Shown here one piece after another: positions 3,675 through 22,030 of a DNA stretch of 64,000 nt. Both the position numbers and the translations under genes were made by a program. The notes under the pieces are model-generated. The model had not been told where the DNA came from, ran no database searches, and saw only the letters and a list, made by a program, of their open reading frames with translations. The DNA comes from Gemmatimonadota bacterium. Its GTDB lineage: Bacteria; Gemmatimonadota; Gemmatimonadetes; Gemmatimonadales; GWC2-71-9. Where the stretch lies: positions 1 to 64,000 of the forward strand of contig JAZDCZ010000409.1 of NCBI GenBank assembly GCA_036679605.1, given 5' to 3'. Position 1 is the first letter of the stretch. Every line of letters begins with the position of its first letter.

Positions 3675-6600
3675 ATGATCGCTCGCATAATCGACTTTGC
3701 ACTTCGCCAGCGGTTACTCGTCATCGTCGGAGCCGTGGCGCTGGTCGGAGTTGGATACCAATCCGCCCGCACGTTGCCGGTCGATGCGTTCCCTGACGTC
3801 TCGCCGGTTCTGGTTCAAATATTCACCGAGTCCTCCGGCTTGGCCCCCGAGGAGGTCGAGCAACTCGTCACCTACCCCATCGAAGTCTCGATGAATGGTC
3901 TTCCGGGGGTGACTCGGATCCAGTCGATCTCGATGTTCGGGCTCTCCGTCGTGAGCGTATACTTCGACGACGCCACCGATATTTATTTTGCCCGGCAGAT
4001 TGTCTTCGAGCGCCTCCAGTCCGCTCGTGAGGACATCCCTCCCGGTCTCGGCGATCCGGAGTTGGGACCGATCACCACCGGATTGGGCCAGGTCTACCAG
4101 TACCTCGTCACGGGCGAGGGCGTATCGGTGGATTCTTTACGGACGATTCAAGATTGGATTGCCAAGTTCCAGCTCCGAACGGTACCCGGCGTGACGGAGG
4201 TGCTTTCCATGGGCGGGAACGTCAAGCAGTATCAGATCCAACTCCATCCGGGACGGCTGGTCCAATATGACATCACGGTTCCGGAAGTGGTGGTTGCCCT
4301 CGAGCGCAACAACGAGAATGCCGGCGGAAGCTACTTGGTCCGGGGGGCGGAGGAGTTTCTGGTTCGTGGCCTAGGCTGGGTCAGCACGCTCGACGACATC
4401 GGCAACGTCGTAGTGGCCGAGCGGGAAAACGCACCCGTGTACGTGCGCAACCTCGGCGAGGTCACGTTCGGCTCGCAGATCCGCCGTGGTGCTGTGACCG
4501 TAAACGGTAAGGGCGAGATGGTAGCCGGAATCGTCCTGAAGCGCATCTTCGAGAACACATCCGCCGTGATCGGCGGAGTGAAGCGCATGGTGGACCGGAT
4601 CAATCGATCGCTGCCTCAAGGGATTGGCCTGGTCCCGTTCTACGACCAGGCGGACCTCGTAGAGCGGGCCATCGAAACCGTGCGCAGCGCCCTACTCGGG
4701 GGCGGCCTACTGATCGTCATCGTCTTGTTCGCGTTACTGGGAAACGTGCGCAGCGCGTTGGTCGTGACCACGCTGCTGCCGGCGTCTGCCCTCTTCGCGT
4801 TCATCATCATGCGCACGACCGGCCTGTCGGCGAACTTGATGTCGCTAGGCGGCTTGGCCATCGGTGTCGGCATGATGGTGGACGGAGGAGTGGTCATGGT
4901 GGAAAATATCTACCGACACCTGGCGGAGCATCGTGACGGCAGCGTTCCTCGGGCGACACTCATCCGCCGCGCGGCGCATGAGGTCGCCCGGCCGGTAGTC
5001 TTTGCAATCATCATCATCATCGTGGTTTTCCTTCCCCTGTTCACACTGGAGGGAGTCGAAGGAAAGCTATTCAAGCCGTTAGCGCTGACGATCACCTACG
5101 CTATGTTGGGCTCACTGGTTTTCTCCGTGACCTTGGTGCCGGTATTGTGTTCGATGTTCCTCAAGGCAGGAAAGGACGAGGACACTCGGATCGTGCGGAT
5201 GTTCCGGAGCAGCTACGAGCCCGCCCTTCGCTGGTCGGTTAAGTACCCCAAGAGGGTAGTCGGGGGCGCGGTTGCGGGGTTGGTTCTCAGTTTGGGTCTG
5301 GTTCCCTTCCTCGGAACCGAGTTCGTCCCCGCTCTCGAGGAAGGATCGATCCTCTTTCGGACGACGATGGCTCCCAGCGCCGGTCTCAACGCCGGAATCA
5401 AATTGGCGACTAGAATGGAGCGCCTCGTATTGCAGTTTCCGGAGGTGGTGGACGCCGTCTCGAAGATCGGCCGGGCAGAGCTCGGCGGCGACCCGGAACC
5501 GGTCAATAATATCGAGACCACGGTGACGCTCAAACCGTTGGAGGAATGGGAGAGCGCGAAAAGTAAGGCGGAGCTGGTCGACGCCATGCGGGATCGGTTG
5601 AGCGCAATCCCCGGGATCGCCCTGAACTTTTCCCAGCCGATTGCAACGCGAGTGGACGAGTTGCTATCCGGTGTGCGGGCCCAACTCGCCATCAAGCTAT
5701 TTGGGGACGACTTGGACACGCTCGTGGTCAAGGCGTCACAGATCGAAAGGGTGATCGCGGGCATCCAAGGGGCGAGGGACGTGCAGACGGAGCAGACGGT
5801 CGGACAACCGCAGATCGTCGTAAGAATCGACCGCGTTGCCGTGGCGCGCCTCGGTATCAACGTGGCGGACGTACAGGACGTGATCCGGGGTGCGGTCGGC
5901 GGCGCCGTGGCCGGTCAGGTATTCGAAGGGCAACGCCGTTTCGAGGTCTTCGTCCGATACGGTGCGGAACATCGCAGCACTCCAGCGGACATACGGCGGG
6001 CGCTGGTCGCCGCGCCGGGCGGCGCTCACGTGCCCATAGGGCAGATCGCCACCGTAGAGGAATTGGTGGGGCCCAAACGCATCAGCCGCGAGGCAAACCA
6101 GCGGCGCATCGTAGTGCAAGCCAACGTCGAAGGGCGCGACATGGGAGGATTCGTCGCCGAGGCTCAGGCGGCAGTGGCGGCAGCCGTACCGTTGCCGGCC
6201 GGCTATTTCGTCGTCTGGGGTGGGCAGTTCGAAAATCAGCAGCGGGCGATGGCTAAGCTCTCGGTGATCGTGCCCATGACGATAGGGCTGATTTTTCTTC
6301 TGCTCTTTTCGAGCTTCAATTCGGCGCGACAGGCGTTGTTGATCATCCTCAACATCCCGTTTGCTTTGATCGGCGGTATCGTCGCACTGTTCCTGTCCGG
6401 TCAGTATCTCAGCGTGCCTGCATCAGTCGGCTTCATCGCGCTCTTCGGCGTCGCCGTGCTGAATGGCGTGGTGCTCGTATCGTATATCAATCAGCTCAGA
6501 GAAGAGGGGTTGGAAAGCGACGAGGCCGTGATCCGTGGGTCTCTTCTTCGCCTCCGGCCGGTCCTCATGACCGCGCTCGTGGCAAGCCTCGGATTGATCC

Positions 6601-6749
6601 CGCTCCTGCTGTCCTCCGGAGCAGGATCGGAGGTGCAGCGACCGCTTGCGACGGTCGTGGTCGGAGGGCTTGTGACATCAACGCTACTCACCTTGCTAGT
6701 GCTCCCCGCATTGTATCGGGCGTTCGAGCCACGGCGCGTAACATTCTAG
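3675..6749 (+). CDS. czcA: CusA/CzcA-family heavy-metal RND permease (CzcA-like)
   Basis: DAFPDVS, SANLMSLGG, RLRPVLMTA, QRPLATVVVGGL; lacks the CusA Met motifs. Confidence 0.92.
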   Translation: MIARIIDFALRQRLLVIVGAVALVGVGYQSARTLPVDAFPDVSPVLVQIFTESSGLAPEEVEQLVTYPIEVSMNGLPGVTRIQSISMFGLSVVSVYFDDATDIYFARQIVFERLQSAREDIPPGLGDPELGPITTGLGQVYQYLVTGEGVSVDSLRTIQDWIAKFQLRTVPGVTEVLSMGGNVKQYQIQLHPGRLVQYDITVPEVVVALERNNENAGGSYLVRGAEEFLVRGLGWVSTLDDIGNVVVAERENAPVYVRNLGEVTFGSQIRRGAVTVNGKGEMVAGIVLKRIFENTSAVIGGVKRMVDRINRSLPQGIGLVPFYDQADLVERAIETVRSALLGGGLLIVIVLFALLGNVRSALVVTTLLPASALFAFIIMRTTGLSANLMSLGGLAIGVGMMVDGGVVMVENIYRHLAEHRDGSVPRATLIRRAAHEVARPVVFAIIIIIVVFLPLFTLEGVEGKLFKPLALTITYAMLGSLVFSVTLVPVLCSMFLKAGKDEDTRIVRMFRSSYEPALRWSVKYPKRVVGGAVAGLVLSLGLVPFLGTEFVPALEEGSILFRTTMAPSAGLNAGIKLATRMERLVLQFPEVVDAVSKIGRAELGGDPEPVNNIETTVTLKPLEEWESAKSKAELVDAMRDRLSAIPGIALNFSQPIATRVDELLSGVRAQLAIKLFGDDLDTLVVKASQIERVIAGIQGARDVQTEQTVGQPQIVVRIDRVAVARLGINVADVQDVIRGAVGGAVAGQVFEGQRRFEVFVRYGAEHRSTPADIRRALVAAPGGAHVPIGQIATVEELVGPKRISREANQRRIVVQANVEGRDMGGFVAEAQAAVAAAVPLPAGYFVVWGGQFENQQRAMAKLSVIVPMTIGLIFLLLFSSFNSARQALLIILNIPFALIGGIVALFLSGQYLSVPASVGFIALFGVAVLNGVVLVSYINQLREEGLESDEAVIRGSLLRLRPVLMTALVASLGLIPLLLSSGAGSEVQRPLATVVVGGLVTSTLLTLLVLPALYRAFEPRRVTF

Positions 6750-6758
6750 GGAGAAAAA

Positions 6759-7103
6759 ATGAAGCTCATTCTCGCAATTATCAAACCCTTCAAGCTTGCG
6801 GAGCTTGTTGATTCCGTCAGGGAAAACCCTCACTTCCCGGGCGTGACGGTATTCGAGGTTCGCGGGTTCGGGCATGACAAGACCGCACCTCACGTTCATG
6901 GAAGAGCCGAAGACCTCCGTGACTTTACAGACCATGTTGCCTGCCTCATAGCAGCATGCGACGACGACGCCGATGACATCGTCGAACAGATAGACTCTGT
7001 AGCACGCACCGGACGTGCAGGAGACGGGAAGATCTTCGTTCTCGACCTCGAGCAGGCCGTGCGAATCGGGACCGGCGAACGCGGAGAGCAGGCACTCTGT
7101 TGA
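6759..7103 (+). CDS. PII-family protein associated with metal RND efflux
   Basis: MKLILAIIKPFKL, VRGFG, TGRAGDGKIFV, RIGTGERG. Confidence 0.9.
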   Translation: MKLILAIIKPFKLAELVDSVRENPHFPGVTVFEVRGFGHDKTAPHVHGRAEDLRDFTDHVACLIAACDDDADDIVEQIDSVARTGRAGDGKIFVLDLEQAVRIGTGERGEQALC

Positions 7104-7145
7104 CACGGGTGATCAGCACCCAGTTTAGAGTCGAGATCATGGAAA

Positions 7146-9074
7146 TTGAATAGCGCCGAACCTGGCTACTCGTCGTGGCGCACTGCCACCGCACGGCGGA
7201 CTTACGTGTCGGGCGTATTCTGGCTCGGCGGAATGGTGATCGCCTTCAACACGACGGTACCGCATGCGGCTGGCTGGCTCCGCGTTCGTCTAGACATTGC
7301 CGGCCTGGTGCTACTGGTTGGTGCACTCATCGGCGGTTGGAATTTCTTCCCCAAGGCACTAAGCGGCATCAGGAAGTTCCGCTTGGACATGAACTTCCTG
7401 ATGACCGTAGCGATCGTGGGCGCGGTGCTGATCGGTGAGCCCATTGAAGCCGCTGCGATCGCCGCGCTCTTCTCGTTCGCCGAGCTGCTAGAAGCGGCGG
7501 CCGTGGTACGTGCGCGTAGGGCGGTAGAGGAGTTGGTTCGCTTGACGCCTGAGCAGGCAAGTCTTGTGCGCGAAAACGGTGTAGAGGAGGCTGTACCCAC
7601 CGGGAGTCTCAGGATAGGAGATTTAGTACGGGTTCGGCCTGGCGAGAAGATACCGATCGACGGAAGAGTCATGGACGGTGAATCCGGAGTTGACGAGGCT
7701 AACGTCACCGGAGAATCTATCCCCGTTTCCAAAGTCGTAGGCGATCCCGTGTATGCCGGCACAACCATCGTAGAGGGCTATCTCGAGATCGAAGCGACAA
7801 CCGACGCGTCGGATACGACCATCGCGCGCCTCGTTCGTCTCGTCCGACAGGCACAAGCCAGGAGAGCACCGATAGAACGATACGTGGATCGGTTCGCCCG
7901 CTACTATACGCCCACCGTAACGGCACTCGCCGCGCTCACAATGGTTGTGCCTCCACTGTTCGGATTGGGTACCGGTTTGGACTGGTTCACTCGCGGCCTA
8001 GCGTTGCTCGTCATTGCGTGCCCTTGCGCCCTTGTAATCGCGACGCCCGTAACCGTCGTTAGCGCCCTGACTAGCGCCGCACGCAACGGTGTATTGATTA
8101 AGGGCGGCGAGTACCTAGAGGCGCTGGGGGCCACCTGCGCAATGGCGTTCGACAAAACCGGTTCCCTCACAGAGGGCCGACTCTCCGTAACCGACGTTCG
8201 TGTTGTCAACAAGGCCTCTAAAGAACTGGTGCTGGGGCTGGCCGCAGCAGCCGAATCCAGATCGGAGCACCCCATCGCTCGCGCAATCGTTGAGAAGGCA
8301 AGAAACGACCAGGTGAAGGAGCTTCCTGTTACCGACTTCGAGGCTCGTCCCGGGATCGGCGTTGTAGCGACGGTGGATGGGCTTGAGATCCGTCTTGGCA
8401 CGACAGACTTGTTCCCCGACTTAGATCTTCCCCCAGCACTGGAAGAACTGGAGTCGGAAGGAAAGACGGTTGTAGTGATTGGTGATGCCGACAAAGTGTT
8501 TGGCATGATTGCCCTTGAGGACACGTTGCGACCTAATGCACGAGCGGTCCTAGGCCAGCTTCGAAAACTGGGCATTCACGAACAGCTGATGCTGACCGGC
8601 GATAACGAAGCCGTGGCTCGCGCGGTAGCGAGCAAAACCGACATTAGCGATGTCCGAGCACGCCTGCTGCCACACGAAAAGGTACAAGTGGTCGAGGAGT
8701 TGAAAGCGCACCACAAGGTTGTCGCCATGTTGGGCGACGGAGTAAACGATGCCCCAGCTCTCGCCGCCGCTACTGTAGGTATTGCCATGGGAGCTGCAGG
8801 ATCGCCAGCGACGATTGAGACAGCCGATGTCGCACTGATGGCCGACGATCTCAAGGCGCTACCCTATGCCGTGCGAATGGCGCAGCTGACCAGGCGACTC
8901 GTTCGATTCAATATCGCTTCCGCTTTGACCCTCAAGCTATTACTGGCAGTGGGCGCCGTCGGAGGGGTCGTTACGTTGCTGGTAGCAGTTCTGGTCGGCG
9001 ATATGGGAGCATCGATTCTCGTAACCCTCAACGCGATGCGCCTTGCGCAGACCCGACCGAACATGACAGACTAG
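7146..9074 (+). CDS. P1B-2 heavy-metal ATPase (Zn/Cd/Pb; ZntA/CadA-like) without N-terminal HMA domain
   Basis: [26 protein letters not shown], late-TM Lys and DMG; TTG start uncertain. Confidence 0.88.
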
Positions 9075-9962: not shown

Positions 9963-11765
9963 CTACCCCGCGCAACAGGATAGCTTTGCCACATCCTTGT
10001 CAAACGCCTGCGCAGCGAGCTTGATCCCTTCCGATAGGGTCAAGTACGGGTGGAACGCCGATGTCAGGTTCTCGATCGTGAGTCCGAACTGGACGGCGAG
10101 CGCCAGTTCTGTAATCATCTCGCCCGCTTCCGAGGCCAGGATATGGGCACCGACAATCTTCCGTGTGTTTGCGTCGGCCACAAGCTTCACGAAACCACGC
10201 GTGTCGCGTGCCGCAAGCGCACGGGGCACGTGCTCCAGCGGCAACTCTGCGGTTAGTGGCTCCGCGCCCTGCGCCCGGATTTCCTCTGTCGTGAACCCCA
10301 CTGAGGCCACCTGCGGATCGGTGAACGTGACCTTGGGCAAAGCCGTGAGATCGAACGGCCTAGCATTGCCGGTTAGGGCATTCTCTGCGGCCGTGGTCCC
10401 GCCGTAGGCAGCGACGTACACAAACATCGGCTCGCCCGTCACGTCACCCGCGGCGTATATGTCGGGATTCGCCGATTGCAGGTATTCGTTCACCACGATC
10501 TCGCCCTTCTTGCCGAGCGTCACACCAGCCTCGGCGAGGCCGAACCCCTCGGTGTTGGACCGCCGGCCAGTGGCCACCAGGAGTTGTTCTGCCGTCACAG
10601 TGCCGGCGCTGCCGTCCTGTTGGAAGCGCACGGTGTAAACCCCGTTCAGCTCGACCCGCTCGATCGTCACCCCTGCGTGGATCTCCATTCCCTCTGCTGT
10701 CAGGTACTCGGAGAGCGCGTCGCCGATTGTGGGGTCCTCGGCAGGCACGATCCGTGGCAACGCCTCGAGTAGTGTCACCTGCACCCCGAGTCGCAAGAAC
10801 ATCTGGGCTAGCTCGAGCCCGACAGCGCTGGCTCCGATCACGATCAGCGAGGACGGCAGCGCGTCCAGAGCCATGGCCGAGGTGCTGTCCAGATACCCCG
10901 TCTCGGCAAGTCCGGGTATCGGCGCAGCCCAGGGGGACGCTCCAGTGGTGATCACGAGTTTTCCAGTTGTGATGTGGCGCCCATCAGCAAGCGTAATGGA
11001 CGTACCTGATGTCACCGTTGCCCGTTGCTCGAACAGGGTCACTGCTTCATACGATTGCAACACATCACGATACTTCGTCTCACGCATTCCCGTGACGAGC
11101 GCATCTTTGTGGTCCCGCACAGCCGGCCAATCCGGCCAGCCGTTTGTGGCGGCAATGCCCTCGAATGGGTGATGGGTGCGGCGGTGGTTTGCTTCGGCTG
11201 CGCGGATCAGTGTTTTGGATGGGACACACCCCACGTTCACACAGGTGCCCCCCAAGGTACCAAGCTCGGCCATCGCCACCCGGGCGCCCAGTTCCGCACC
11301 TCTGATCGCGGCGCCGAAGCCTGCCGACCCACCGCCGACGATCACGAGATCGAAGTCGCCGTCTCCCCGCGAGATGGGCGTGGTAGCGGTGCGATCCGAA
11401 CTCCCCCGGATGAAATCACCAACTCCCTCCAAGGCCTCGGTGCCCTCTAAGCGCTTGATGTAGTAATCAGGGGCCTTCAGGAACACCTCTCGGCAGTAGG
11501 GGCAACCACAGTAGGGGACTTCTTGCCCCGCATACTCGAACGTGAAGGTCAACTCCGGTGTTTTTTCCGCTAGGCAGGTTGGGCAGGCCACCAGATCCTT
11601 GGTTCGCTGGAGGTGCTGCTCGGGATCAGCGGTGAACTCGTCGGCGCAGTCCTGGCAACAGAAGTGGTATTCGGTGTTGTCATAACTGTACGTCGCCGCC
11701 TTTTCTTTGCTGATTCCTAACCTGACCAGGGAACAACCGCAGTAGGGACAAATGAGCGTTTTCAT
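9963..11765 (-). CDS. merA: Mercuric reductase with two N-terminal YHS/TRASH-like Cys repeats
   Basis: GGGSAG FAD motif, GGTCVNVGCVP, FVYVAA, FHPYLT, C-terminal LSCCAG. Confidence 0.95.
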   Translation of the reverse strand: MKTLICPYCGCSLVRLGISKEKAATYSYDNTEYHFCCQDCADEFTADPEQHLQRTKDLVACPTCLAEKTPELTFTFEYAGQEVPYCGCPYCREVFLKAPDYYIKRLEGTEALEGVGDFIRGSSDRTATTPISRGDGDFDLVIVGGGSAGFGAAIRGAELGARVAMAELGTLGGTCVNVGCVPSKTLIRAAEANHRRTHHPFEGIAATNGWPDWPAVRDHKDALVTGMRETKYRDVLQSYEAVTLFEQRATVTSGTSITLADGRHITTGKLVITTGASPWAAPIPGLAETGYLDSTSAMALDALPSSLIVIGASAVGLELAQMFLRLGVQVTLLEALPRIVPAEDPTIGDALSEYLTAEGMEIHAGVTIERVELNGVYTVRFQQDGSAGTVTAEQLLVATGRRSNTEGFGLAEAGVTLGKKGEIVVNEYLQSANPDIYAAGDVTGEPMFVYVAAYGGTTAAENALTGNARPFDLTALPKVTFTDPQVASVGFTTEEIRAQGAEPLTAELPLEHVPRALAARDTRGFVKLVADANTRKIVGAHILASEAGEMITELALAVQFGLTIENLTSAFHPYLTLSEGIKLAAQAFDKDVAKLSCCAG

Positions 11766-11813: not shown

Positions 11814-12581
11814 CTATGCTTCGGCTAGTTCTGCCCCACCCTCCTTGATCCCACCAAAAACGAACGGCACCAACCACCGCCGGTCTTCGTCCGTGAGGAA
11901 ATGCTGGATCAACAACCCTAGAGCGGTTCCAAACACCACATGGGCAACAAAGGTGAGCAAGAAAAGTTGCGGCCACGCGAAGTTGTAACCGAACAGTCCC
12001 ACCATCGGGCCCATGGGCGGCCCCATCATCATGCCCAGCTCAAGGACAAGGGACCATGATGTTGCCCAGAGCACTCCGCTAAGGTACGACTTCCGCTTCC
12101 CCCAAACAAAAGCATAGAACAGTCCGAAGTTCGCGCCGTTCAAGTAATGCACCGCCAAGCCCACGGGGTAGAAAAACGCGAAGTTAGCACTACCCGTGGC
12201 CATCTTGCCAAACATGACTGGCGTGTCGGCGGGAAGCCAACCATGAATCACCCCGGCCTGACGCACGGCATCGAGCGCGATAGTCGCAACCGCCCCGAGG
12301 CCGAACCCCACGACGATGCGGCGAAATACGTCGGGGTACCGCCGCCGGCAGTAAAGCGCGATACCCAGAAGAAGAAGCATGGCAGGAACGTAGACCAACG
12401 GTACGTACCACTTTGCGAACAGGTGGGCAGTGGATATCACCTGAGGACCCATGCGGATGCCCTTGAAGTACTCCGCGTAGCCGAACGAGAACGTGACCAG
12501 CTGAATCGGAACCGCACCGCCGGCCACGAACGCTAACGTCGTGAGGGCAACACGGCGGTTGTCCATCTTCGCCGCAGGCAT
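11814..12581 (-). CDS. Uncharacterised multi-pass membrane protein in mer operon
   Basis: About 6 hydrophobic segments; HYLNGANFG, GMMMGPPMGPM, AHVVFG. Confidence 0.75.
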   Translation of the reverse strand: MPAAKMDNRRVALTTLAFVAGGAVPIQLVTFSFGYAEYFKGIRMGPQVISTAHLFAKWYVPLVYVPAMLLLLGIALYCRRRYPDVFRRIVVGFGLGAVATIALDAVRQAGVIHGWLPADTPVMFGKMATGSANFAFFYPVGLAVHYLNGANFGLFYAFVWGKRKSYLSGVLWATSWSLVLELGMMMGPPMGPMVGLFGYNFAWPQLFLLTFVAHVVFGTALGLLIQHFLTDEDRRWLVPFVFGGIKEGGAELAEA

Positions 12582-12592
12582 CAGTCCTTCCC

Positions 12593-13069
12593 TTACTGCC
12601 GAACGGAGCTGACGATCTTTTCGACGACTCCGCGCAATTCGGTGGCAATATCCGCTAATCCGTCGTAGGGCGCGAACTGGTGGACGGGATCATGATACCG
12701 GACCATCACCTGGCCGTTTGGCGCCTCCATCACGAGGATCTTGAGCGGCGGCTCAATTCCCGCGTTCCGGTTCGTCTCGATGACTTGCTTCATGTAACGG
12801 GGATGAAAGAAGAAAACTTGGCGCATCCCCCCAGTGCGCATGCCAACCATCCGGAGCATCTGCTGTGGGTTGACTTCGTTTACCACCATCAGGTTCTCGC
12901 CCTCGATCGCCTGTTTGAGAGTGGCGAGCGTGGCGTTGAAGTCGTGCGCCGACCGCACGGTTACCAAGAAATCCGGCGGTGGTGCGCCCTGCGCTACCAC
13001 CGTCTGCACCGCACCACTCATGAGAACGGCTGCACTGCATACTGCGAGACTACGCCTGATCTGATTCAT
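12593..13069 (-). CDS. Secreted DUF302-domain protein
   Basis: Signal peptide, SAHDFNATLATLKQAI, GIEPPLKILVME; GGAG before ATG 13069. Confidence 0.8.
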   Translation of the reverse strand: MNQIRRSLAVCSAAVLMSGAVQTVVAQGAPPPDFLVTVRSAHDFNATLATLKQAIEGENLMVVNEVNPQQMLRMVGMRTGGMRQVFFFHPRYMKQVIETNRNAGIEPPLKILVMEAPNGQVMVRYHDPVHQFAPYDGLADIATELRGVVEKIVSSVRQ

Positions 13070-13098: not shown

Positions 13099-13428
13099 TC
13101 AGCAGCACCCCGAACCGTTCCCCCCCTGTAGCGCCGCAACAATCTTCTCGACCGTTGGTACTCCCTGAAAACGCCCGTCAGCATTCGCATACACACGACA
13201 ACAGTTGGAATCGGACTCGGAACCCTGTCCGTCGACATCCTGTTCGTCCACGAGGATCGTGGGAGAGCCGTACTGCTTGACGTACGATGGCACACCGTCC
13301 GCCTCGCGGTCCCACTCGTCCCAGACGGGCGTCTCGCCGATCGCGGCGAAGGCGTTGCGTAATTGCTCACGAGCCGCCTCCACATTGGGACAATCCTTGT
13401 CCGTTACCAGTTCAACACGGTGGCTCAT
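13099..13428 (-). CDS. Thioredoxin-fold protein (DUF2703-like, mer-associated)
   Basis: DCPN, YGSPTILVD, CCRVY, C-terminal GCC. Confidence 0.75.
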   Translation of the reverse strand: MSHRVELVTDKDCPNVEAAREQLRNAFAAIGETPVWDEWDREADGVPSYVKQYGSPTILVDEQDVDGQGSESDSNCCRVYANADGRFQGVPTVEKIVAALQGGNGSGCC

Positions 13429-13440
13429 GCCGATCATCTC

Positions 13441-13854
13441 CTAGTTGTGTACGTGCGTGGTGTCATGCACATGCGCGCCTTCTGACTCATCCACCGTTCC
13501 GTTTCCTGCGCCCACCTCCGCCGTAAAGTCCGTGAGTCGTGCCAATTCGGCGATAAACGTCTCCGGATTGGTCACCCTCGGATCGAAGGTGACAATCGCA
13601 CGACCCTTCTCGTACGAAACCTCCGCGTCGTCTACCCCATCCACGTTCTTGAGGGCCACACGGGCCGTCACGGCACACGTCGGTCAGGTCATACCTGTCA
13701 CCGCGAGGGTGACCATATGGGAATTCGGCGCCGCCTCGATAACCATGGCCGCGCGATCGTGTCCCGCCATCTCCTCATGATCCGATTCGACTGAGATCGC
13801 GATCACAACGACACCGACGATACCCGCAAAGACCGCCCATTCAGCTTTGGACAT
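13441..13854 (-). CDS. MerP-like HMA protein with in-frame TGA (candidate selenocysteine, GMT-U-PTC)
   Basis: One continuous frame from ATG 13854: ...VTLAVTGMT[TGA 13686-13684]PTCAVTARVALKNVDGVDDAEVSYEKG...; sits at the merP position after merT. Confidence 0.75.
13650..13670 (-). promoter_or_regulatory. Candidate bacterial SECIS hairpin
   Basis: 13 nt after the UGA: UGA-C-GGCC[CGUGU]GGCC-C-UCA; G in second loop position; loop starts 21 nt after UGA. Confidence 0.5.
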
Positions 13855-13870
13855 CTGTTTCTTCCTTACT

Positions 13871-14209
13871 CTAGAGGAACCACTGGGACCACGTGGGATA
13901 GGTCGCGGCCACCGCTGCGAACGCAGTCGCGATCCAAAGCGTCGTCTTGCTACGACGCCGCACCCTGGGGTCAGCGCACGGCTTGTCAGAATTACACGCC
14001 TTCTTCTCTTCGCGATCGACGAGATAGAACCCGCCGAACAAGAACAAGCCGGTTGCGCCAAGGAAGTAGGGTCTCAGCGGCTCGAACGTGCTGCTCAGTC
14101 CCGCGCCGGAGACCCCTAGGGTGACAGCCACAAGAGGCCCGGCGCAGCAGAGTGCCGACCCGACCGCTGCGCCAACCCCTCCAAATGCTGTCATCGTTGC
14201 TTTGATCAT
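13871..14209 (-). CDS. merT: Mercuric transport protein MerT
   Basis: SALCCAGPL, FEPLRPYF, ACNSDKPC; ATGA overlap with merR stop. Confidence 0.9.
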   Translation of the reverse strand: MIKATMTAFGGVGAAVGSALCCAGPLVAVTLGVSGAGLSSTFEPLRPYFLGATGLFLFGGFYLVDREEKKACNSDKPCADPRVRRRSKTTLWIATAFAAVAATYPTWSQWFL

Positions 14210-14607
14210 GTATCCTCGCTGAGAGCTTCGAGAATCGGACACTCGCTCGCGGGTTCTCGGAGGTCGCATGCCCGCGAAAGCTCGACCAACACCGTTCTCA
14301 TCCTCTCCAACTCGCTGGTCTTCTTTTCGACCATCGCAATCTTCTCTTTGGCTTTGGTCTCGACCGCCGCACATGCAGCCCTATGCTCAACCCGAAGATC
14401 GAGGAGCTCGGCTATCTCCTCCAATGAGAAGCCGATGTTCTGCGCTCGTTTGATGAATCGGAGTCGGGCCACGGCATCAGGATCGTACTGGCGGTATCCC
14501 GACGCGGTTCGCGGTGCTCTTGGGAGCAAGCCGCGGCGCTCGTAATACCGGACGGTTTGGATATTCACCCCAGCGCCCGATGCCACCTGGCCAATCTTCA
14601 TCGCCAT
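14206..14607 (-). CDS. merR: Hg-responsive MerR-family regulator
   Basis: MKIGQVA..VRYYERRGL HTH; three Cys (AACAAV, RACDL, ECPIL); AAGGAG RBS. Confidence 0.88.
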   Translation of the reverse strand: MAMKIGQVASGAGVNIQTVRYYERRGLLPRAPRTASGYRQYDPDAVARLRFIKRAQNIGFSLEEIAELLDLRVEHRAACAAVETKAKEKIAMVEKKTSELERMRTVLVELSRACDLREPASECPILEALSEDT

Positions 14608-14628: not shown

Positions 14629-14660
14629 ATGATAAACCCTGTACCATAGTATAGAGTCAA
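14629..14660 (-). promoter_or_regulatory. mer promoter/operator
   Basis: TTGACT-CTATACTATGGTACAGGGTT(20 nt)-TATCAT, with an imperfect GTAC-N4-GTAC type dyad. Confidence 0.85.
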
Positions 14661-15525: not shown

Positions 15526-16467
15526 TCACATATGCGTTTCGATTTTCAAAACCACGGTGTAGTCGAACTTCGGCTCCCCACCCCGAAGATTCCGGTACAC
15601 CGGCAGCTTCACACCGCCCAATAGTGCCCAGTTGCGATAGGTGAGCCAAAACCCCGGGGATATCGCAAGCACGGTTCCTCCGGTCTGCCCTTGTCTTACG
15701 CCGTTGATAACGGTGCGCCCCGCCGTCACCCCGTTGAACTCCACCAGCAGGAGCGGATCGACTCCGGTGAACTTGGGAAGCCACGGACGAATTCCGACCG
15801 CAGCATCGTACCGGTACTCATTGCCGCGCTTTCGCCCGAACGCCTCTCCATTTGCCCGGACCAAGGCCGATGTCCAGAGGTAGTACCGTAGCCCGTCACG
15901 TGAGACCGTGCCCCCGACCAGGAAATCTGTGGATCCCGAGCCCAACGGCGGGTCGCTGCCGGTGTTGGCGAGCGGGACCTTGACACCCCCGATGAGAGCC
16001 GCGTGATACTGGGTCGGCCCGCTGAAGGAGTGGTAAAACCGCCATTTGGCTCGCAAGACCGCGTCACCGACACCCGTCGCATCACGATTGACCTGACCCA
16101 CTCCCGGCACCAGTCCACGCTCCGACTTGCGCTGAGTGAGCGGGACCGCAAGCGTCAGCGTGAGATCCTGCGTCACACCGTATTGGAACTCCGTGTGAAG
16201 CGCTTGCTGTTTCACCTCGGTCGCACCGGAAGCTTTGGTAGCATCGGCCTCCAAAGAGACACCCACTCCTCCACGCCAAATGGTCTGCGGCCCAAGGCCA
16301 AAGATGGGATTGTGGCGCGCCACGGGACCCGCAGGCATCGGCATCACCGGACGGCGGGGCGGCACCTGCCCAACCGCTGCGCTGGACGCTACAGCACTCG
16401 CGATGGCCCCCAGCGCGGCAACTTTCAACAACGCGTACATCGTAAATTTCCTCAATGCGGACATCAT
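15526..16467 (-). CDS. Putative outer-membrane beta-barrel transporter
   Basis: Signal peptide, GVGDAVLRAKWRF, GVKVPLA, LGSGSTD, alternating beta pattern. Confidence 0.7.
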   Translation of the reverse strand: MMSALRKFTMYALLKVAALGAIASAVASSAAVGQVPPRRPVMPMPAGPVARHNPIFGLGPQTIWRGGVGVSLEADATKASGATEVKQQALHTEFQYGVTQDLTLTLAVPLTQRKSERGLVPGVGQVNRDATGVGDAVLRAKWRFYHSFSGPTQYHAALIGGVKVPLANTGSDPPLGSGSTDFLVGGTVSRDGLRYYLWTSALVRANGEAFGRKRGNEYRYDAAVGIRPWLPKFTGVDPLLLVEFNGVTAGRTVINGVRQGQTGGTVLAISPGFWLTYRNWALLGGVKLPVYRNLRGGEPKFDYTVVLKIETHM

Positions 16468-16493
16468 AAATTTCCTCGCCGGCGAACCGAGCC

Positions 16494-16856
16494 CTACGGT
16501 TTTCGATCGAAATCAGCGAACTCCGACTCGAAGTTCCGTGTGACCTTTGCAACCTCGAACCCGGCGTCTTTCACAGCCTTCTTGAGCAGATCGTTGGAAA
16601 TGTCCGCGTCATCCTTGAGCGTGATCGTTGCAAGCCCGGTCTGCAACACGATCTCGAGATCCTCTACGCCATCCAGTTTCTTGAGCTTCTTCTCGAGTCC
16701 GTAGGCACAGAACGGACAACTCATTCCCAGGACCGTGACCTCGATCTGTCGTGACTTGTTCTCGGGGGCCGCAGCCGCCTCCTCCTGAGCCCACGTCGCG
16801 GGCGCGGCAATGACCAAAGCTGCCGCCGCCGCTAGCGTTGTTCTTAGGACGTTCAT
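16494..16856 (-). CDS. Periplasmic HMA-domain metal chaperone
   Basis: Signal peptide ending TWA-Q, VLGMSCPFCAYGLEKKL, VKDAGF. Confidence 0.88.
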   Translation of the reverse strand: MNVLRTTLAAAAALVIAAPATWAQEEAAAAPENKSRQIEVTVLGMSCPFCAYGLEKKLKKLDGVEDLEIVLQTGLATITLKDDADISNDLLKKAVKDAGFEVAKVTRNFESEFADFDRKP

Positions 16857-16939
16857 TTTCCTAGACTCCTTTCCTCTACGTTGTACTTCTCCCCAAACAG
16901 AAACTTCTTGAATCGTGGTCGCCGGCGAGTCACATGACC

Positions 16940-17998
16940 CTACATCGGCGGCATGGACTGGAACCAATGGTGAAACCACGGTACGTCGTTGGGCCGCATG
17001 GTCGAGTGGGTAAACCCCTCAAACCAGTCTTGCAGGCCCGTCACACCCAAAGTCCAGTGCAGTCCCCACCACCACGCCACAGACGCCAGCGCACCCACGA
17101 GGATCGCTACCACCAACCATACCAACACCTTCTTGCCCAACTCGACTCCGAGTAGGCCGAAATAACGATGCAAGGTGAACGGCATGACTAGCGTTCCCAA
17201 ATAGAACGCCGAGAGGCCGGCATACGTCACGAACTGCGCCTTCCACAGTCCGGCGGCGAATAACGCATTGCCCACGAGAGGCGCGCCTGTGACGTAGGCC
17301 AGTAGCAAGCCGACTACGCCGTTTCCGACCTGCACGAGCGGACCCTTCGTACCCTGCAGTGACAAGTATCCGGGTGATTGACCGAGAGCGAGGAAAAACC
17401 CAACGCCTAACAATCCGAAGAGCAACGGCCACCACAGCGAATAGATCTGGCCGGCCAGTGACATCCCGATCCGCGCCAAGACCGGCCCCCGCCTGGCGAT
17501 CGGTGAGGCTTGGGGAGCTAACTCGATCTCGCGCGCGGCGTCCTGCCGCGCCGACTCCCACAAACTTTCTGGCGTTCGCTTGAGCCCGTACATCAGCACC
17601 ACGAGAGCGACAGCCACAGCAACGAATTGACCCACTACCGGTTGCGGTCCGTTCAGCTCCACAATGAAAAACACGAACCAAAGAAACAGCGCTTGCGCCG
17701 AGACGAGGTACGCCATCACTCCGATCGGGCTGACCCCGTGCGCCAATAATTCCTTGGCCTGCCGGAATATCCGGCTGCGGCTCGGAGGGCTCAGCACCCC
17801 AAGGAGCGCGGCCAGCCCCACCGTCCGCCACCCCTCGTCGCGGGCCTCGAGCACGCGGCGGCGCCAAATATCGAAGAAGAACGATTCGCTCAGGGCCGTG
17901 AGCGCAACCGCAAGCGCCCAGACCCACCAGAGCATCAAGATGAAGTGACCGCCTGTGACCCTCGCCCACAGGATCGTGCTTTCAATGAATGGAGGCAT
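16940..17998 (-). CDS. Uncharacterised permease-like membrane protein
   Basis: 8-9 hydrophobic segments; loosely DUF318-like; tail WFHHWFQSMPPM. Confidence 0.65.
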   Translation of the reverse strand: MPPFIESTILWARVTGGHFILMLWWVWALAVALTALSESFFFDIWRRRVLEARDEGWRTVGLAALLGVLSPPSRSRIFRQAKELLAHGVSPIGVMAYLVSAQALFLWFVFFIVELNGPQPVVGQFVAVAVALVVLMYGLKRTPESLWESARQDAAREIELAPQASPIARRGPVLARIGMSLAGQIYSLWWPLLFGLLGVGFFLALGQSPGYLSLQGTKGPLVQVGNGVVGLLLAYVTGAPLVGNALFAAGLWKAQFVTYAGLSAFYLGTLVMPFTLHRYFGLLGVELGKKVLVWLVVAILVGALASVAWWWGLHWTLGVTGLQDWFEGFTHSTMRPNDVPWFHHWFQSMPPM

Positions 17999-18012
17999 AG
18001 TGATCTACCCTG

Positions 18013-18987
18013 TTATCTAAAAAAGGAAAAGCGAATGCGGGTGCCGAGCTGGACCCGAGTACTGTATTCCAGCTGGGTCCCATTAAGGTCCTGCACAACC
18101 GGAAATTGTACCGATCCCTCGAACAACAACCACGGGGTCGGGATCCACTGGAGATCCGGGCTAAGGAACACCAAGTGACCGCCGGAGTTGGGATTCGTCG
18201 CGCCGCTGATCTCATCTCTTCGGAGCACTTGACCGTTCAGTTCCAGGTATACCATCAGGGACTTATCCCGGAGAGTCTTGTAAACCCACGGTGCAACCCG
18301 GAAGCCTACGGCGACGTCATAGCTGTAGACGTTGCCCGCCTTGAAGCCGTCGTCCCTCGTATTGACGCGGTAGCCCGCGTTGGCAAGAAGCCCCATGCGG
18401 TCGCGCGTCATCGTGAACAACACCTTAAACGGGAAATCCCACGATCCGGACCCTACCTGCAGCGGGCGGGGAGCGTTGGTCCCGTCCGGCAAGTCGGCCC
18501 CGGTCCCACCCACCGGGATCTTGACCCCGCCTTCAATCCCCAAACGCGTGGTCCCCTTGAGACGATTCTTGCTCAAGAAAACCCACTTGGTGTCCACGAG
18601 TACGTCGCCCACTCCACTGCTCGTATAGTTCCGGCGCGTTCCGTCCGGCGCCGTAAAGTCCATGGATTTGCGCACGAACGGGACGATGACGCGAGTGGTC
18701 CACATCGAGGTGATCGCATACGGCAGAACCCCGAACGGCTGCACGAACACGTCTATGTCACGTTGCATCGGATCGGGAATTCCCGTCCCGTCCCGTCGCA
18801 GATCTTCCCGTCCTAGGAATGCGGAGAAGGTGCGCAGTGCTTCCTCCTCGAATCCCGTCGTGATGGCGGTTTCGGTGTGGAAGGGGAGCGCTTGTGCTGC
18901 CGCCTCAGGTGGCGCCAAGACCGTCACAGCATTCAGGACTATAGCCAAGCAAGATCCGGTAACGATGTTGCGTTGAGTTCCTTTCAT
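18013..18987 (-). CDS. Putative outer-membrane beta-barrel transporter (paralogue of 15526-16467)
   Basis: Signal peptide, SGVGDVLVDTKW, GVKIPVG, QVGSGSWD; TGATG overlap with ATPase. Confidence 0.7.
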   Translation of the reverse strand: MKGTQRNIVTGSCLAIVLNAVTVLAPPEAAAQALPFHTETAITTGFEEEALRTFSAFLGREDLRRDGTGIPDPMQRDIDVFVQPFGVLPYAITSMWTTRVIVPFVRKSMDFTAPDGTRRNYTSSGVGDVLVDTKWVFLSKNRLKGTTRLGIEGGVKIPVGGTGADLPDGTNAPRPLQVGSGSWDFPFKVLFTMTRDRMGLLANAGYRVNTRDDGFKAGNVYSYDVAVGFRVAPWVYKTLRDKSLMVYLELNGQVLRRDEISGATNPNSGGHLVFLSPDLQWIPTPWLLFEGSVQFPVVQDLNGTQLEYSTRVQLGTRIRFSFFR

Positions 18988-21464
18988 CAGACCGCACACT
19001 CCACACTTCCGTCCGTGTGATCTGTGCGTTGCACGCGGAAACCCGCACTCGCCAACACTTCGGCGAGGCGCTCGCCAGGCTCCGCATCCCCCTCCCAGTC
19101 CACTGTTACCTCCTTGGTCCGAGGATCAGCCGCCACGTCGGTCACTTCCTCGAGCCCGCCGAGGCGATCCCGTATCGTGCGGGCACATCCTTCGCAGTGC
19201 ATGTCCGGCACTTGGAGCAACAGTTTTGTCAGTGCTGCTTCACGTTCCTCCTGAGGGCAAGCCGGAGCTTTTTTCACGTGTTCGGCTCGACCCAGTAGCC
19301 TTCCCCAGAACGAATTCGCCAGCACGGCGCTGACGCTCGCGACCATCGCCACCATCGCCCAGACGGGATGGACCACTCCTGTCGTGGCCAGCGGGATGCC
19401 TATGCCATTGAAGCCGAACGCCAGGGTCAGGTTTTGCACGGTCTTCCGGTACGAGGTGCGGCCGATGGCGATAGCATCGCTCACCCCTTCCAGTCTGCTG
19501 TGGATGAGCACTACATCGGCCGACTCGATGGCGATGTCTGTCCCGGCGCCGATCGCGATGCCGACGTCGGCCTGGGTGAGCGCCGGGGCATCGTTGATCC
19601 CGTCCCCCACCATGGCCACGCGCACGCCCGTCGCCTGGAGTTCCCGGATCTTGGCCGCCTTCTCCTCGGGAAACACTTCGGCGATCACGTTCTCGATCCC
19701 GACCTCGCTGGCCACGATGCCGGCTGTCTGCCGGTTGTCGCCGGTCAGCATCGTCGGCTCAATACCAGCCTGCTTCAGGCTCGCGATGGCCTCTCGGGCA
19801 CCGTCCTTGACCGCGTCGGCGATGGCAATGAGTCCGATGAGTTGAGCGCTGCGGGCAACGCCCACGACGGTCTGCCCACGGCCCTCCAGCTCGTCGAACA
19901 TTGCGCGGGCATCGGTCTCAAAATAGACATCGTGTTCTTCGAGCAGCTTCCGACGACCCACTACGATGTGTTCGCCGGCAGCTTGCGCCACGACACCCCG
20001 GCCGGTCACCGACTCGAACCAGTCGGCCGCTTCAACGTCCAGTCCCCGCTGCTCAGCATGAGCCACAATCGCTTGGCCCAAGAAGTGTTCGGAAAGCAGT
20101 TCGGCAGAGGCCGCCGCGCCAAGAACGTCGCTTTGCGAGGCGTTGCCAAAGGCCACCACCTCCACGACCGTCGGATCACCCTCCGTGATAGTCCCCGTCT
20201 TATCCAGTACGACCGCGCGAATGTCCTTCATGATCTGGAACGCCTCAGCACTCCGGATGAGCACACCCTGCTCGGCAGCCAAGCCCCCGCCGCGAATGAG
20301 CGCGAGTGGCGTCGCCATCCCGAGGGCGCACGGGTATCCCATGACGAGCACACTGAGGGCTGCGAAGATCGCACGCGTCAAGTCCGGGGACCCAACGACG
20401 ATCCAGGCACCGGCGGTCCAGATGAGAAAGGCCATGGCAGACACCGCCAGCACACTGGGCACGAAGTACGTGAGAATCGCGTCGACGAGCTGAATGATGC
20501 CCGGCTTCATCGCGCGCGCTTCCTGCACATGCTTGGCCACGCGCTGAAGGAAAGTGTCATCACCCACGCGGGTGACTTCGATTAGGAGTGAGCCCGCCTT
20601 ATTCACCGAACCGCCGATCACCTCAGCACCCAGCGCCTTCTCGACAGGAAGTGGCTCGCCCGTCACAATGGACTCGTCCACGGCCGAGGCGCCCTCTACC
20701 ACCTTCCCATCCACCGGAATGCGCTCGCCCGGTCGTACCCGAACACGATCGCCCACTCTTACCTCTTCAATAGCGACCTCGATCTCGCTGCCGTCCCTTA
20801 CCACGCGTGCCGTGTCCGGCTGGAGTTCCAGCAGCTTGCGCACCGCCTCCTGGCTCCGAGCGCGGACGGTTGTAGAGACGTAGCCACTCAGGAGGTGGTA
20901 CGTCATGAGAAAGGTCGCGGCCGCGAAGAAGTCAGCGGGAAAGTCGGGAGCCACAAACCCCAGCAACCCCGCGACGTAGGCACCCGACGCCCCAAAGGAC
21001 AGCAGGACGTGCTGGTTGAAGATCCGCCGTCGCAGGCTTCCCCACGCCATGCGGAGGACGTGCGAGCCCACCCCGAAGACGGCAACCGTCGCGATAACGG
21101 CCTGAATGGTTCTACTTCCCGGGATATGGATGCCGACCCACATCAGCGCCATGAGAACAATCGAAACCGTGGCGAGCGCCGTGTTAACAAGGAGCTTACG
21201 CGTCTCGCGCCGCAACTCCTCCCGCTGCTCTTCGTAGGCCAGCACACGGTTCGGATCTCGGACGGTGTAGCCCAGGTCGCGCAACACGTCTTTCACGCGT
21301 GCTTCATCGATGCGCTCGGCGTCGTACTCGATCAGCGCTTCCTCATGCGCCACGCTGACTGCCACCGTCTCGACGCCCTCGGTGTTCGCGTAGGCGCGGC
21401 GGATGCTCTCCTGGCAAAAAGAACAATGCATTCCGCCGACGTTGATTTGCAGTTTGTTGGTCAT
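18987..21464 (-). CDS. P1B heavy-metal ATPase, YPC variant, with N- and C-terminal HMA domains
   Basis: [38 protein letters not shown]. Confidence 0.9.
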
Positions 21465-21495
21465 TCGCCTCTCCCGCCCGTTCCGACTGCTAGCC

Positions 21496-21527
21496 AATGT
21501 AAACATTGGAGTCTACTCCAAAGTCAA
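21496..21527 (-). promoter_or_regulatory. ZntR-type MerR-family promoter/operator
   Basis: TTGACT-TTGGAGTAGACTCCAATGTT(20 nt)-TACATT with perfect dyad TTGGAGT-AG-ACTCCAA. Confidence 0.88.
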
Positions 21528-21580
21528 GACCCTGCTTGGACCTTTAGATTGAGCCCCAGACCCGCCCTTGCTGTGGAAAC

Positions 21581-21604
21581 AACCTTTGTGTACACTCCAA
21601 GGTT
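21581..21604. promoter_or_regulatory. Second imperfect operator copy upstream of regulator
   Basis: AACCTTTGTGT-AC-ACTCCAAGGTT dyad sharing the ACTCCAA half-site. Confidence 0.55.
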
Positions 21605-21637
21605 CCGACATGCGTCACGCCGCACTGGAGGACACGA

Positions 21638-22030
21638 ATGCGTATTGGAGAGCTAGGGAAGTCGGCGGGAGTGACCCCCGACACTATTAGGTATTACGAG
21701 CGTGAAGGCCTGCTGCCTCGCGCAGACCGCACCCCCAGCGGTTACCGGGACTACAGGGCAGAAGTCGTGGATGACCTGCGATTCATCAAGAAGGCGCAGG
21801 CGCTAGGGCTCAAGCTCAGCGACGTGCGCGAGGTCCTGGAGATCTCCTCAGGGGGCCGGGCACCGTGCGAGCATGTGCGCGCAACCGTCTCTGCACGCCT
21901 CACGGAGGTAGAGCGACGGCTCAAGGAACTTCGGGCGCTGCGGTCGACGCTTCGGGAGACGCTGGAACGGCTTGACCGCGCGCCGAAGCCGAAGGCTGGG
22001 TGCCGATGTGCCGTGATCGAGTCGGCCTGA
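21638..22030 (+). CDS. MerR-family heavy-metal regulator (ZntR/CadR-like)
   Basis: MRIGEL..IRYYEREGL, APCEHV, GCRCAVIE; GGAGG RBS; divergent from ATPase. Confidence 0.9.
   Translation: MRIGELGKSAGVTPDTIRYYEREGLLPRADRTPSGYRDYRAEVVDDLRFIKKAQALGLKLSDVREVLEISSGGRAPCEHVRATVSARLTEVERRLKELRALRSTLRETLERLDRAPKPKAGCRCAVIESA

Follow-up and report, generated by a model that had tools for sequence, protein, structure and literature searches.

A predicted selenocysteine form of MerP in a mer operon of Gemmatimonadota

Gene content of the locus and architecture of the protein

The window analysed here is a stretch of 64,000 nt (GenBank assembly GCA_036679605.1, contig JAZDCZ010000409.1) from a Gemmatimonadota bacterium, whose genome is referred to below as G000. 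Its minus strand carries a mer operon that includes a merP-like gene with an in-frame TGA at a predicted selenocysteine (Sec) position, called Sec-merP. The gene order is merR, merT, Sec-merP, a thioredoxin-like gene, a DUF302 gene, a gene for a 255-aa membrane protein and merA, and the successive gaps are -4, 16, 3, 29, 11 and 48 nt. From this anatomy we infer, as had been proposed originally, that the genes are co-transcribed and that the product of Sec-merP acts as a Hg receptor. The features of the locus are:

14629..14660, minus strand: MerR-type promoter/operator upstream of merR (TTGACT, a 20-nt spacer with an imperfect dyad, TATCAT)
14206..14607, minus strand: merR, co-oriented; three metal-binding Cys; best PDB matches 4ua1 and 5crl, with all three Cys aligned
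13871..14209, minus strand: merT; PF02411, 75.6 bits; Cys-Cys in TM1 and a Cys pair in the loop
13441..13854, minus strand: Sec-MerP gene, predicted; 137 aa plus TAG; TM helix at about residues 3-22, His-rich linker, HMA domain at residues 46-114, motif GMT-U57-PT-C60
13684..13686, minus strand: in-frame TGA, predicted Sec57, in place of the leading Cys of the HMA CxxC; the alignment of residues 46-96 with 3-53 of MerP 1afi places U57 on residue 14
13650..13670, minus strand: candidate bacterial SECIS; stem 13666-13663/13657-13654, loop CGUGU at 13662-13658, R-U pair +16/+32
13099..13437, minus strand: small thioredoxin-like protein, Cys form; NF049942, 44.2 bits (cut-off 70); distant to the DF (seleno)protein family
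12593..13069, minus strand: exported DUF302 protein; PF03625; in 11 of 39 loci
11814..12581, minus strand: 255-aa membrane protein with no Pfam or NCBIfam match; in 10 of 39 loci
9963..11765, minus strand: merA, mercuric reductase, Cys form (CVNVGC, C-terminal Cys-Cys); TIGR02053, 554 bits, above the cut-off of 454.45; N-terminal YHS-type domain PF04945

The merT start overlaps the merR stop (ATGA), and merT ends 16 nt before Sec-merP. The MerR protein scores 134.5 bits against TIGR02051, under the cut-off of 150.85. Its operator was missed by a consensus promoter scan because only spacers of 16-18 nt were allowed; spacers of 19-20 bp with a dyad are described for MerR-family promoters in passages of PMC3431237, and a MerR-type operator is present in 18 of the 23 merR upstream regions of the family. 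Across relatives, merT is the immediate upstream neighbour of the Sec gene in 41 of the 47 loci with room to see it, and the Cys-Cys pair of MerT is invariant in all 31 aligned copies. The 39 loci of at least 3 kb contain at least 36 merT, at least 22 merR and at least 11 merA genes at 47% identity or more; all neighbour counts in these 39 loci are lower bounds, and many of the loci end early. The thioredoxin-like gene, which starts 3 nt past the Sec-merP stop, is present in 17 of them. In two loci, L086 (82-750, minus strand) and L163, MerT and the U-containing MerP form natural in-frame fusions that have no separate TM anchor.

Several other features of the surroundings were observed. The window MerA has two Cys-rich YHS-type repeats at its N-terminus, where NmerA would be. 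At another locus (L140), a merA that is 89% identical sits beside a Sec-merP of just 41% identity, a sign that the operon may be a mosaic. A metal-resistance island occupies 3675-9074 (plus strand) and 15526-22030 of the window; it contains an RND pump, a P-II-like protein, two P-type ATPases, a permease-like protein and another MerR-family regulator (most of them named from inspection), as well as a second exported HMA protein with the motif GMSCPFC (16494-16856).

When translated through the TGA, positions 13854-13441 of the minus strand encode 137 aa with a single internal TGA (13686-13684), and a ribosome-binding site (AAGGAAG) lies 6 nt upstream. The original prediction had joined the ORFs 13684-14061 and 13441-13671; these do share a frame on the minus strand and are the two halves of one read-through gene, with the TGA exactly where the first Cys of the motif belongs (GGT ATG ACC TGA CCG ACG TGT). 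The aligned residue 14 of MerP is one of the pair, Cys14 and Cys17, that forms its Hg ligands. An intact HMA fold is indicated by the Pfam match (PF00403, 45.6 bits) and, in agreement with it, by a structure model and a fold search: the model shows residues 3-22 as a helix, followed by a linker of low confidence and, from about 46 to 114, a confidently modelled domain, and its closest match among structures is MerP 1osd (0.9 A rmsd across 71 columns).

A hydrophobic helix is likewise present at the N-terminus, with a KD19 maximum of 2.25 at residue 4 and the helix 3-22 of the model. Trp6 and His26 of this N-terminal region are invariant among the Sec forms, and together these features suggest a membrane anchor that is probably uncleaved. 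The His-rich tail noted originally exists in the window protein; it is not general, as the tail is free of His in 34 of 50 relatives. The conserved His-rich part is instead the linker before the HMA domain, with at least two His in 40 of 47 Sec forms. The leader of the Cys forms differs from that of the Sec forms, in that an extra CxxC is found in 14 of 18 Cys forms vs 0 of 47 Sec forms. As was expected of gene callers, Sec-merP has been split in the databases. A length-limited search of the protein collection gave one match (E <= 1e-12) among 22 candidates, the window's own 76-aa downstream half; this record lacks U57 and C60 and with them the whole metal-binding motif.

Conservation of the in-frame TGA and of the hairpin behind it

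In 401 genomes of the family, a search at the protein level yielded 48 matches (E <= 1e-12). Inspection of 36 loci from the protein searches showed TGA at the U57 codon in 18 and TGC or TGT in the other 18, and in all 18 TGA genes the codon for the second ligand is TGY. A DNA pattern (GMT-TGA-xx-C-xx-[T/A]-A-R) was then run over GTDB contigs and gave 102 matches, comprising 50 family members (above 80 bits vs the family profile), 2 other HMA proteins and 50 chance or out-of-frame hits; this later scan demanded TGY at the second ligand and is blind to UxxU forms. The 50 family members are labelled as Gemmatimonadota (48), Terriglobia (1) and 'uncultured bacterium' (1). Pooling with the genome searches and removal of duplicates left 50 distinct TGA sequences, the window's included and a few of them near-copies, to which L178, which has a different loop and escaped the pattern, adds a 51st. 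These 51 sequences share about 35-65% protein identity, and their frames are open on both sides of the TGA. The codon is kept across many genera, and it aligns with Cys of homologues, although the sequences are related to one another by descent. In a quick tree of the domain, the 51 Sec rows and 27 Cys rows are split by a branch with support 65, by which a single origin of the Sec forms is neither shown nor rejected. (The two other HMA proteins, L090 from Acidobacteria and L151 from Fimbriimonadaceae, have the motif GMT-U-GG-C and labels outside Gemmatimonadota; L090 is truncated after 25 codons. G000 itself has, on a 4.3-kb contig (C191, L039), a second merP of the Cys type followed by the start of a merA, which may be the host's or contamination.)

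The hairpin reported after the TGA could be confirmed: after a 13-nt spacer come two GGCC arms that pair around a CGUGU loop (+22..+26), at -8.7 kcal/mol. Sections of PMC13188914 constrain bSECIS elements to a stem of 4-16 bp, a loop of 3-9 nt with G at loop position 1-2, a distance of 16-37 nt from the UGA and an MFE <= -7.5; here the stem is 4 bp, the loop follows after 21 nt, and the energy is within that limit. As a single sequence, the hairpin is not more stable than shuffles (z of +0.1 to +1.1 in three windows and -0.1 in a fourth). Because its stability is unexceptional, its evidential weight comes from its conservation.

That conservation is seen in several ways. The 4-bp stem (+18..+30) is intact in 50 of 50 TGA sequences, with three replacements of G-C by A-U and one of C-G by U-A, so that the stem is kept through compensatory changes. 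In these 50 sequences, the four stem codons have a third-position entropy of 0.14-0.40 bits vs 1.0-1.94 for the other 23 scored, a comparison that uses free positions, since the amino acids T/A-A-R fixed in the pattern scan conserve only the first and second stem codon positions by construction. The 18 TGA genes found without the DNA pattern have G at +18 (17 of 18), C at +21 (18 of 18), G at +27 (18 of 18) and C or T at +30 (16 and 2), and the same synonymous sites are mixed in the 18 Cys genes. Five named pairs are formed in 90 of 90 cells of the TGA genes vs 82% in the Cys genes, where each of the two pairs governed by third positions is broken in 8 of 18. Covariation in the 18-row TGA alignment was no better than in shuffles (57 of 500). 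Five-nucleotide YGURW loops, almost equally far from the UGA, occur in the SCO-like CxxxU (CGUGA) and peroxiredoxin-like UxxC (UGUAU) genes of G000, which are the only two with such a loop in a hand-picked set of six that includes SelD. (Four of the comparison genes were redox-motif genes chosen by eye from the best 140 of 657 coding-potential candidates, and one came from a scan for SECIS-like words that, run blind over the genome, was too noisy.) One Cys-type MerP, L181 of genome G630, carries a full hairpin sequence (GGCC CGGGU GGUC) and may be a precursor or a reversion.

The host genome contains the machinery for Sec: selA (505 bits), selB (349.8), selD (365) and tRNA-Sec (72.5 bits) all score over curated cut-offs. 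The G000 assembly comprises 434 contigs and has 6.34% contamination; the sel genes lie on contigs other than the window's; its selD has one in-frame TGA of its own. Elsewhere, selA was found in 17 of 17 and 4 of 4 further TGA-carrier genomes, or 21 of 21 tested, and in 20 of the 28 genomes whose match has no stop. TGA is also used as a normal stop in the window, where it ends merR. (ARAGORN reports a second tRNA with anticodon TCA inside the G000 tRNA array; at 71 nt it is too short for tRNA-Sec. Contigs C125, C26, C390, C65 and C154 of G000 hold other selenoprotein candidates, with families named by eye as SCO-like CxxxU, peroxiredoxin-like UxxC, thioredoxin-like UxxC, AhpD-like CxxU and glutaredoxin-like UxxC; most have a hairpin after the UGA.)

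Sec machinery is therefore present, the TGA recurs well beyond this assembly and the hairpin is conserved, each the reverse of what had been named beforehand as evidence against the prediction. By comparative sequence evidence, the gene is almost certainly intact and its UGA recoded as Sec.

Relation to known families and a second Sec flavoprotein in relatives

The best NCBIfam match of the window protein is NF041115 (UxxU_metal_bind, 'metal-binding (seleno)protein'), at 79.5 bits, below the cut-off of 95; two orthologues reach 82.0 and 86.5 bits, and one (G067) passes at 97.4. In the catalogue entries (PMC13188914 Table 1; portions of PMC9312934) this family is given as 'putative mercuric reductase'. 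In the deep-Sep supplementary material (PMC12013277), NF041115 is represented by a short exported protein of the HMA type whose Sec takes the first Cys position of GMTCxxC, and the same material files CxxU and UxxS variants under 'putative mercuric reductase' as well. The window protein resembles NF041115 in having Sec at the same first-Cys position of a MerP-like domain. It differs in being UxxC with one Sec rather than UxxU with two, and in belonging to a family with a conserved TM helix, an invariant Trp, a His linker and a fixed place in Gemmatimonadota merR-merT operons; the text and tables of the catalogue that bear on NF041115 give no mer-operon context for it. The statement in the original prediction that Sec-containing HMA or mercuric-transport proteins had been predicted computationally is thus correct, as MerP-like selenoproteins with Sec at this site are catalogued under NF041115. 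Sec at this MerP-like site is already known from computation and is not categorically new. The window protein stands apart by having one Sec, by its probable membrane anchor, by its lineage and by a constant location within mer operons under MerR control; the open-licence literature yielded no report of a Sec-MerP encoded in a mer operon, nor of selenoproteins from Gemmatimonadota.

Other known systems are more distant. The protein is like MerP (TIGR02052; 1osd, 1afi) in fold, in the register of the motif and in its position after merT in a MerR-type operon, and it differs from MerP by the Sec in place of the first Cys, the probably uncleaved anchor and the long His linker; it scores 57.1 bits against TIGR02052, below the cut-off of 92.55. 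The MerT/CopZ fusion-like heavy metal transport selenoprotein (NF045683) shares the use of Se in a Mer-type uptake module and the MerT-HMA fusion seen here in L086 and L163, but in the window merT and Sec-merP are separate genes; against a cut-off of 375, the window scores 45.3 bits and the L086 fusion 68.7. In the MerT selenoproteins of the catalogue entries ('putative mercuric transport protein', CU or C/SxxU) the Sec is in MerT, whereas the window MerT keeps its Cys-Cys. The 'Mercuric transport protein MerP' of the GOS survey (PMC2398784) was considered as a member of the same family and rejected: the supplementary sequences under that name are two identical 33-aa read fragments without GMTUxxC.

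Outside the window, some relatives carry a second candidate selenoprotein:

L075, L078, L146, L184, L200-L204 and, from metagenomes, L209-L328: MerA-like Sec flavoprotein disulfide reductase, redox CxxxxC

In L075 (3255-4631, minus strand), L078 (5245-6624, plus strand) and L146, the flavoprotein gene stands beside Sec-merP, has TGA at the first redox Cys (GGT-U-VNEGC) and lacks a C-terminal Cys-Cys; it also adjoins Sec-merP in L276. With four candidates per genome scored, it is found in 5 of the 401 family genomes, at 71-100% identity, always with TGA and always together with Sec-merP (G000 is not among the five). A metagenome pattern scan gave at least 120 matches, which with the genome loci amount to at least 114 distinct sequences, or 108 after dropping 6 that are apparent broken lipoamide dehydrogenases or a fragment. 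Among the matches listed, 41 of 44 complete flavoproteins have no C-terminal Cys-Cys, most have a hairpin of their own at about +26..+43, and a merT-, merP- or merA-like neighbour is present in 14 of 31 loci of at least 5 kb. The flavoprotein narrowly passes the cut-off of TIGR01350, lipoamide dehydrogenase, and fails that of MerA. No NCBIfam selenoprotein model matched it at E <= 1e-30, and the 119-entry table of PMC13188914 showed no such family. The DUF302 gene and the gene for the 255-aa membrane protein (11814-13069 in the window) recur together in mer loci, also beside this Sec reductase.

Proposed role, alternative explanations and significance

Given the operon setting, the Sec protein probably serves as a MerP-like Hg relay. 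Hg(II) would induce the operon via MerR, as the operator and the MerR Cys residues suggest. During translation, SelB would bind the hairpin 18-30 nt past the UGA and insert Sec, a step for which the conservation of the hairpin argues. The N-terminal helix would then serve as an inner-membrane anchor that leaves the HMA domain outside, consistent with the basic N-terminus and with the fusions to the C-terminus of MerT. A selenolate is fully ionised, unlike a Cys thiol, and selenolate 57 may capture Hg(II) first, after which Cys60 would close a Se-Hg-S site. By analogy to MerP, MerT and MerA, the Hg would pass by ligand exchange to the MerT Cys-Cys and then to MerA for reduction. Hg-Se bonds are tighter than Hg-S bonds, and selenols hold Hg more tightly than thiols; for that reason, the hand-over to the MerT thiols is not obviously downhill. 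It is the weak step of the proposed mechanism, and trapping is the main rival. Also counting against the relay are the sequence closeness of the HMA domain to Cu-ATPase domains, its score below the MerP cut-off, and the sighting of merA (47% identity or more) in no more than 11 of the 39 larger loci, many of which end early.

The TGA might also be explained without selenium, as a nonsense mutation, an error of assembly or a codon read through with Cys or Trp, in a gene that would be a pseudogene or have a Se-free reading; this view could draw on the contamination of the assembly (6.3%) and on the unexceptional hairpin taken alone. Such an accident is highly improbable in view of the same TGA in 51 distinct sequences of about 35-65% identity with frames open on both sides, of selA in all 21 other carriers tested, and of the ordinary use of TGA as the stop of merR; in addition, a public contig set, which may be from the source sample, matches 13206-14150 with 0 differences.

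The remaining explanations accept a real selenoprotein and differ on what the Sec does. It might act as a trap rather than a relay, with the anchored Se-Hg holding Hg(II) stoichiometrically at the outer face of the membrane and releasing little to MerT, so as to buffer the cell or limit Hg uptake. The tight binding of Hg by selenols would favour this, as would the membrane anchor with its His-rich linker and the plain Cys of all 31 aligned MerT copies, but the coupling to merT and the two fusions argue for hand-over, and Se supplies only one of the two ligands; on balance trapping seems unlikely. It is also unlikely, and a shade more so, that the mer setting is secondary and that the Sec serves redox upkeep, through an easily re-reduced Se-S in an oxidising periplasm, or the binding of another soft metal (Cu, Ag or Cd). 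The HMA domain is by sequence also near Cu-ATPase domains, which score equally, the thioredoxin-like neighbour recurs, and the window holds a multi-metal island with, by inspection, an RND pump and two P-type ATPases; against these, MerT, a three-Cys MerR nearest to Hg sensors, the MerR operator and a MerA above its cut-off all point to Hg.

Beyond the relay, a broader picture may be drawn tentatively: a selenium-armed mer operon of Gemmatimonadota, in which Hg entry and reduction would both run on Se-Hg chemistry and resistance would be tied to the supply of Se. As part of this picture, which is less likely to be right than wrong, Sec at the Hg-contact site of the receptor would stand in for the extra leader CxxC of the Cys forms, and in some lineages a MerA-like flavoenzyme without the C-terminal Cys-Cys, encoded in the place of merA, would carry Sec at its inner redox site. 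At low Se, a stop at the UGA would leave 240 nt untranslated before the gene that begins 3 nt past the TAG (13441-13686 of the window, minus strand); it is a speculation that such a stop could make the downstream genes, merA included, Se-dependent.

These findings correct an annotation, as the one database record found is the 76-aa fragment, and they suggest a likely function for NF041115-type selenoproteins. A 2026 review, in the portion that treats them, states that the roles of Sec heavy-metal transport proteins need investigation. The long-predicted role of Sec in such proteins now becomes directly testable, since the family offers 51 Sec forms and 27 Cys forms of a single small domain that folds well and shares one operon setting. 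The toxicity of mercury is commonly attributed to its attack on selenoproteins; a Hg-induced operon with Sec at the Hg-binding site would be a natural test of the selenol as a reversible Hg relay.
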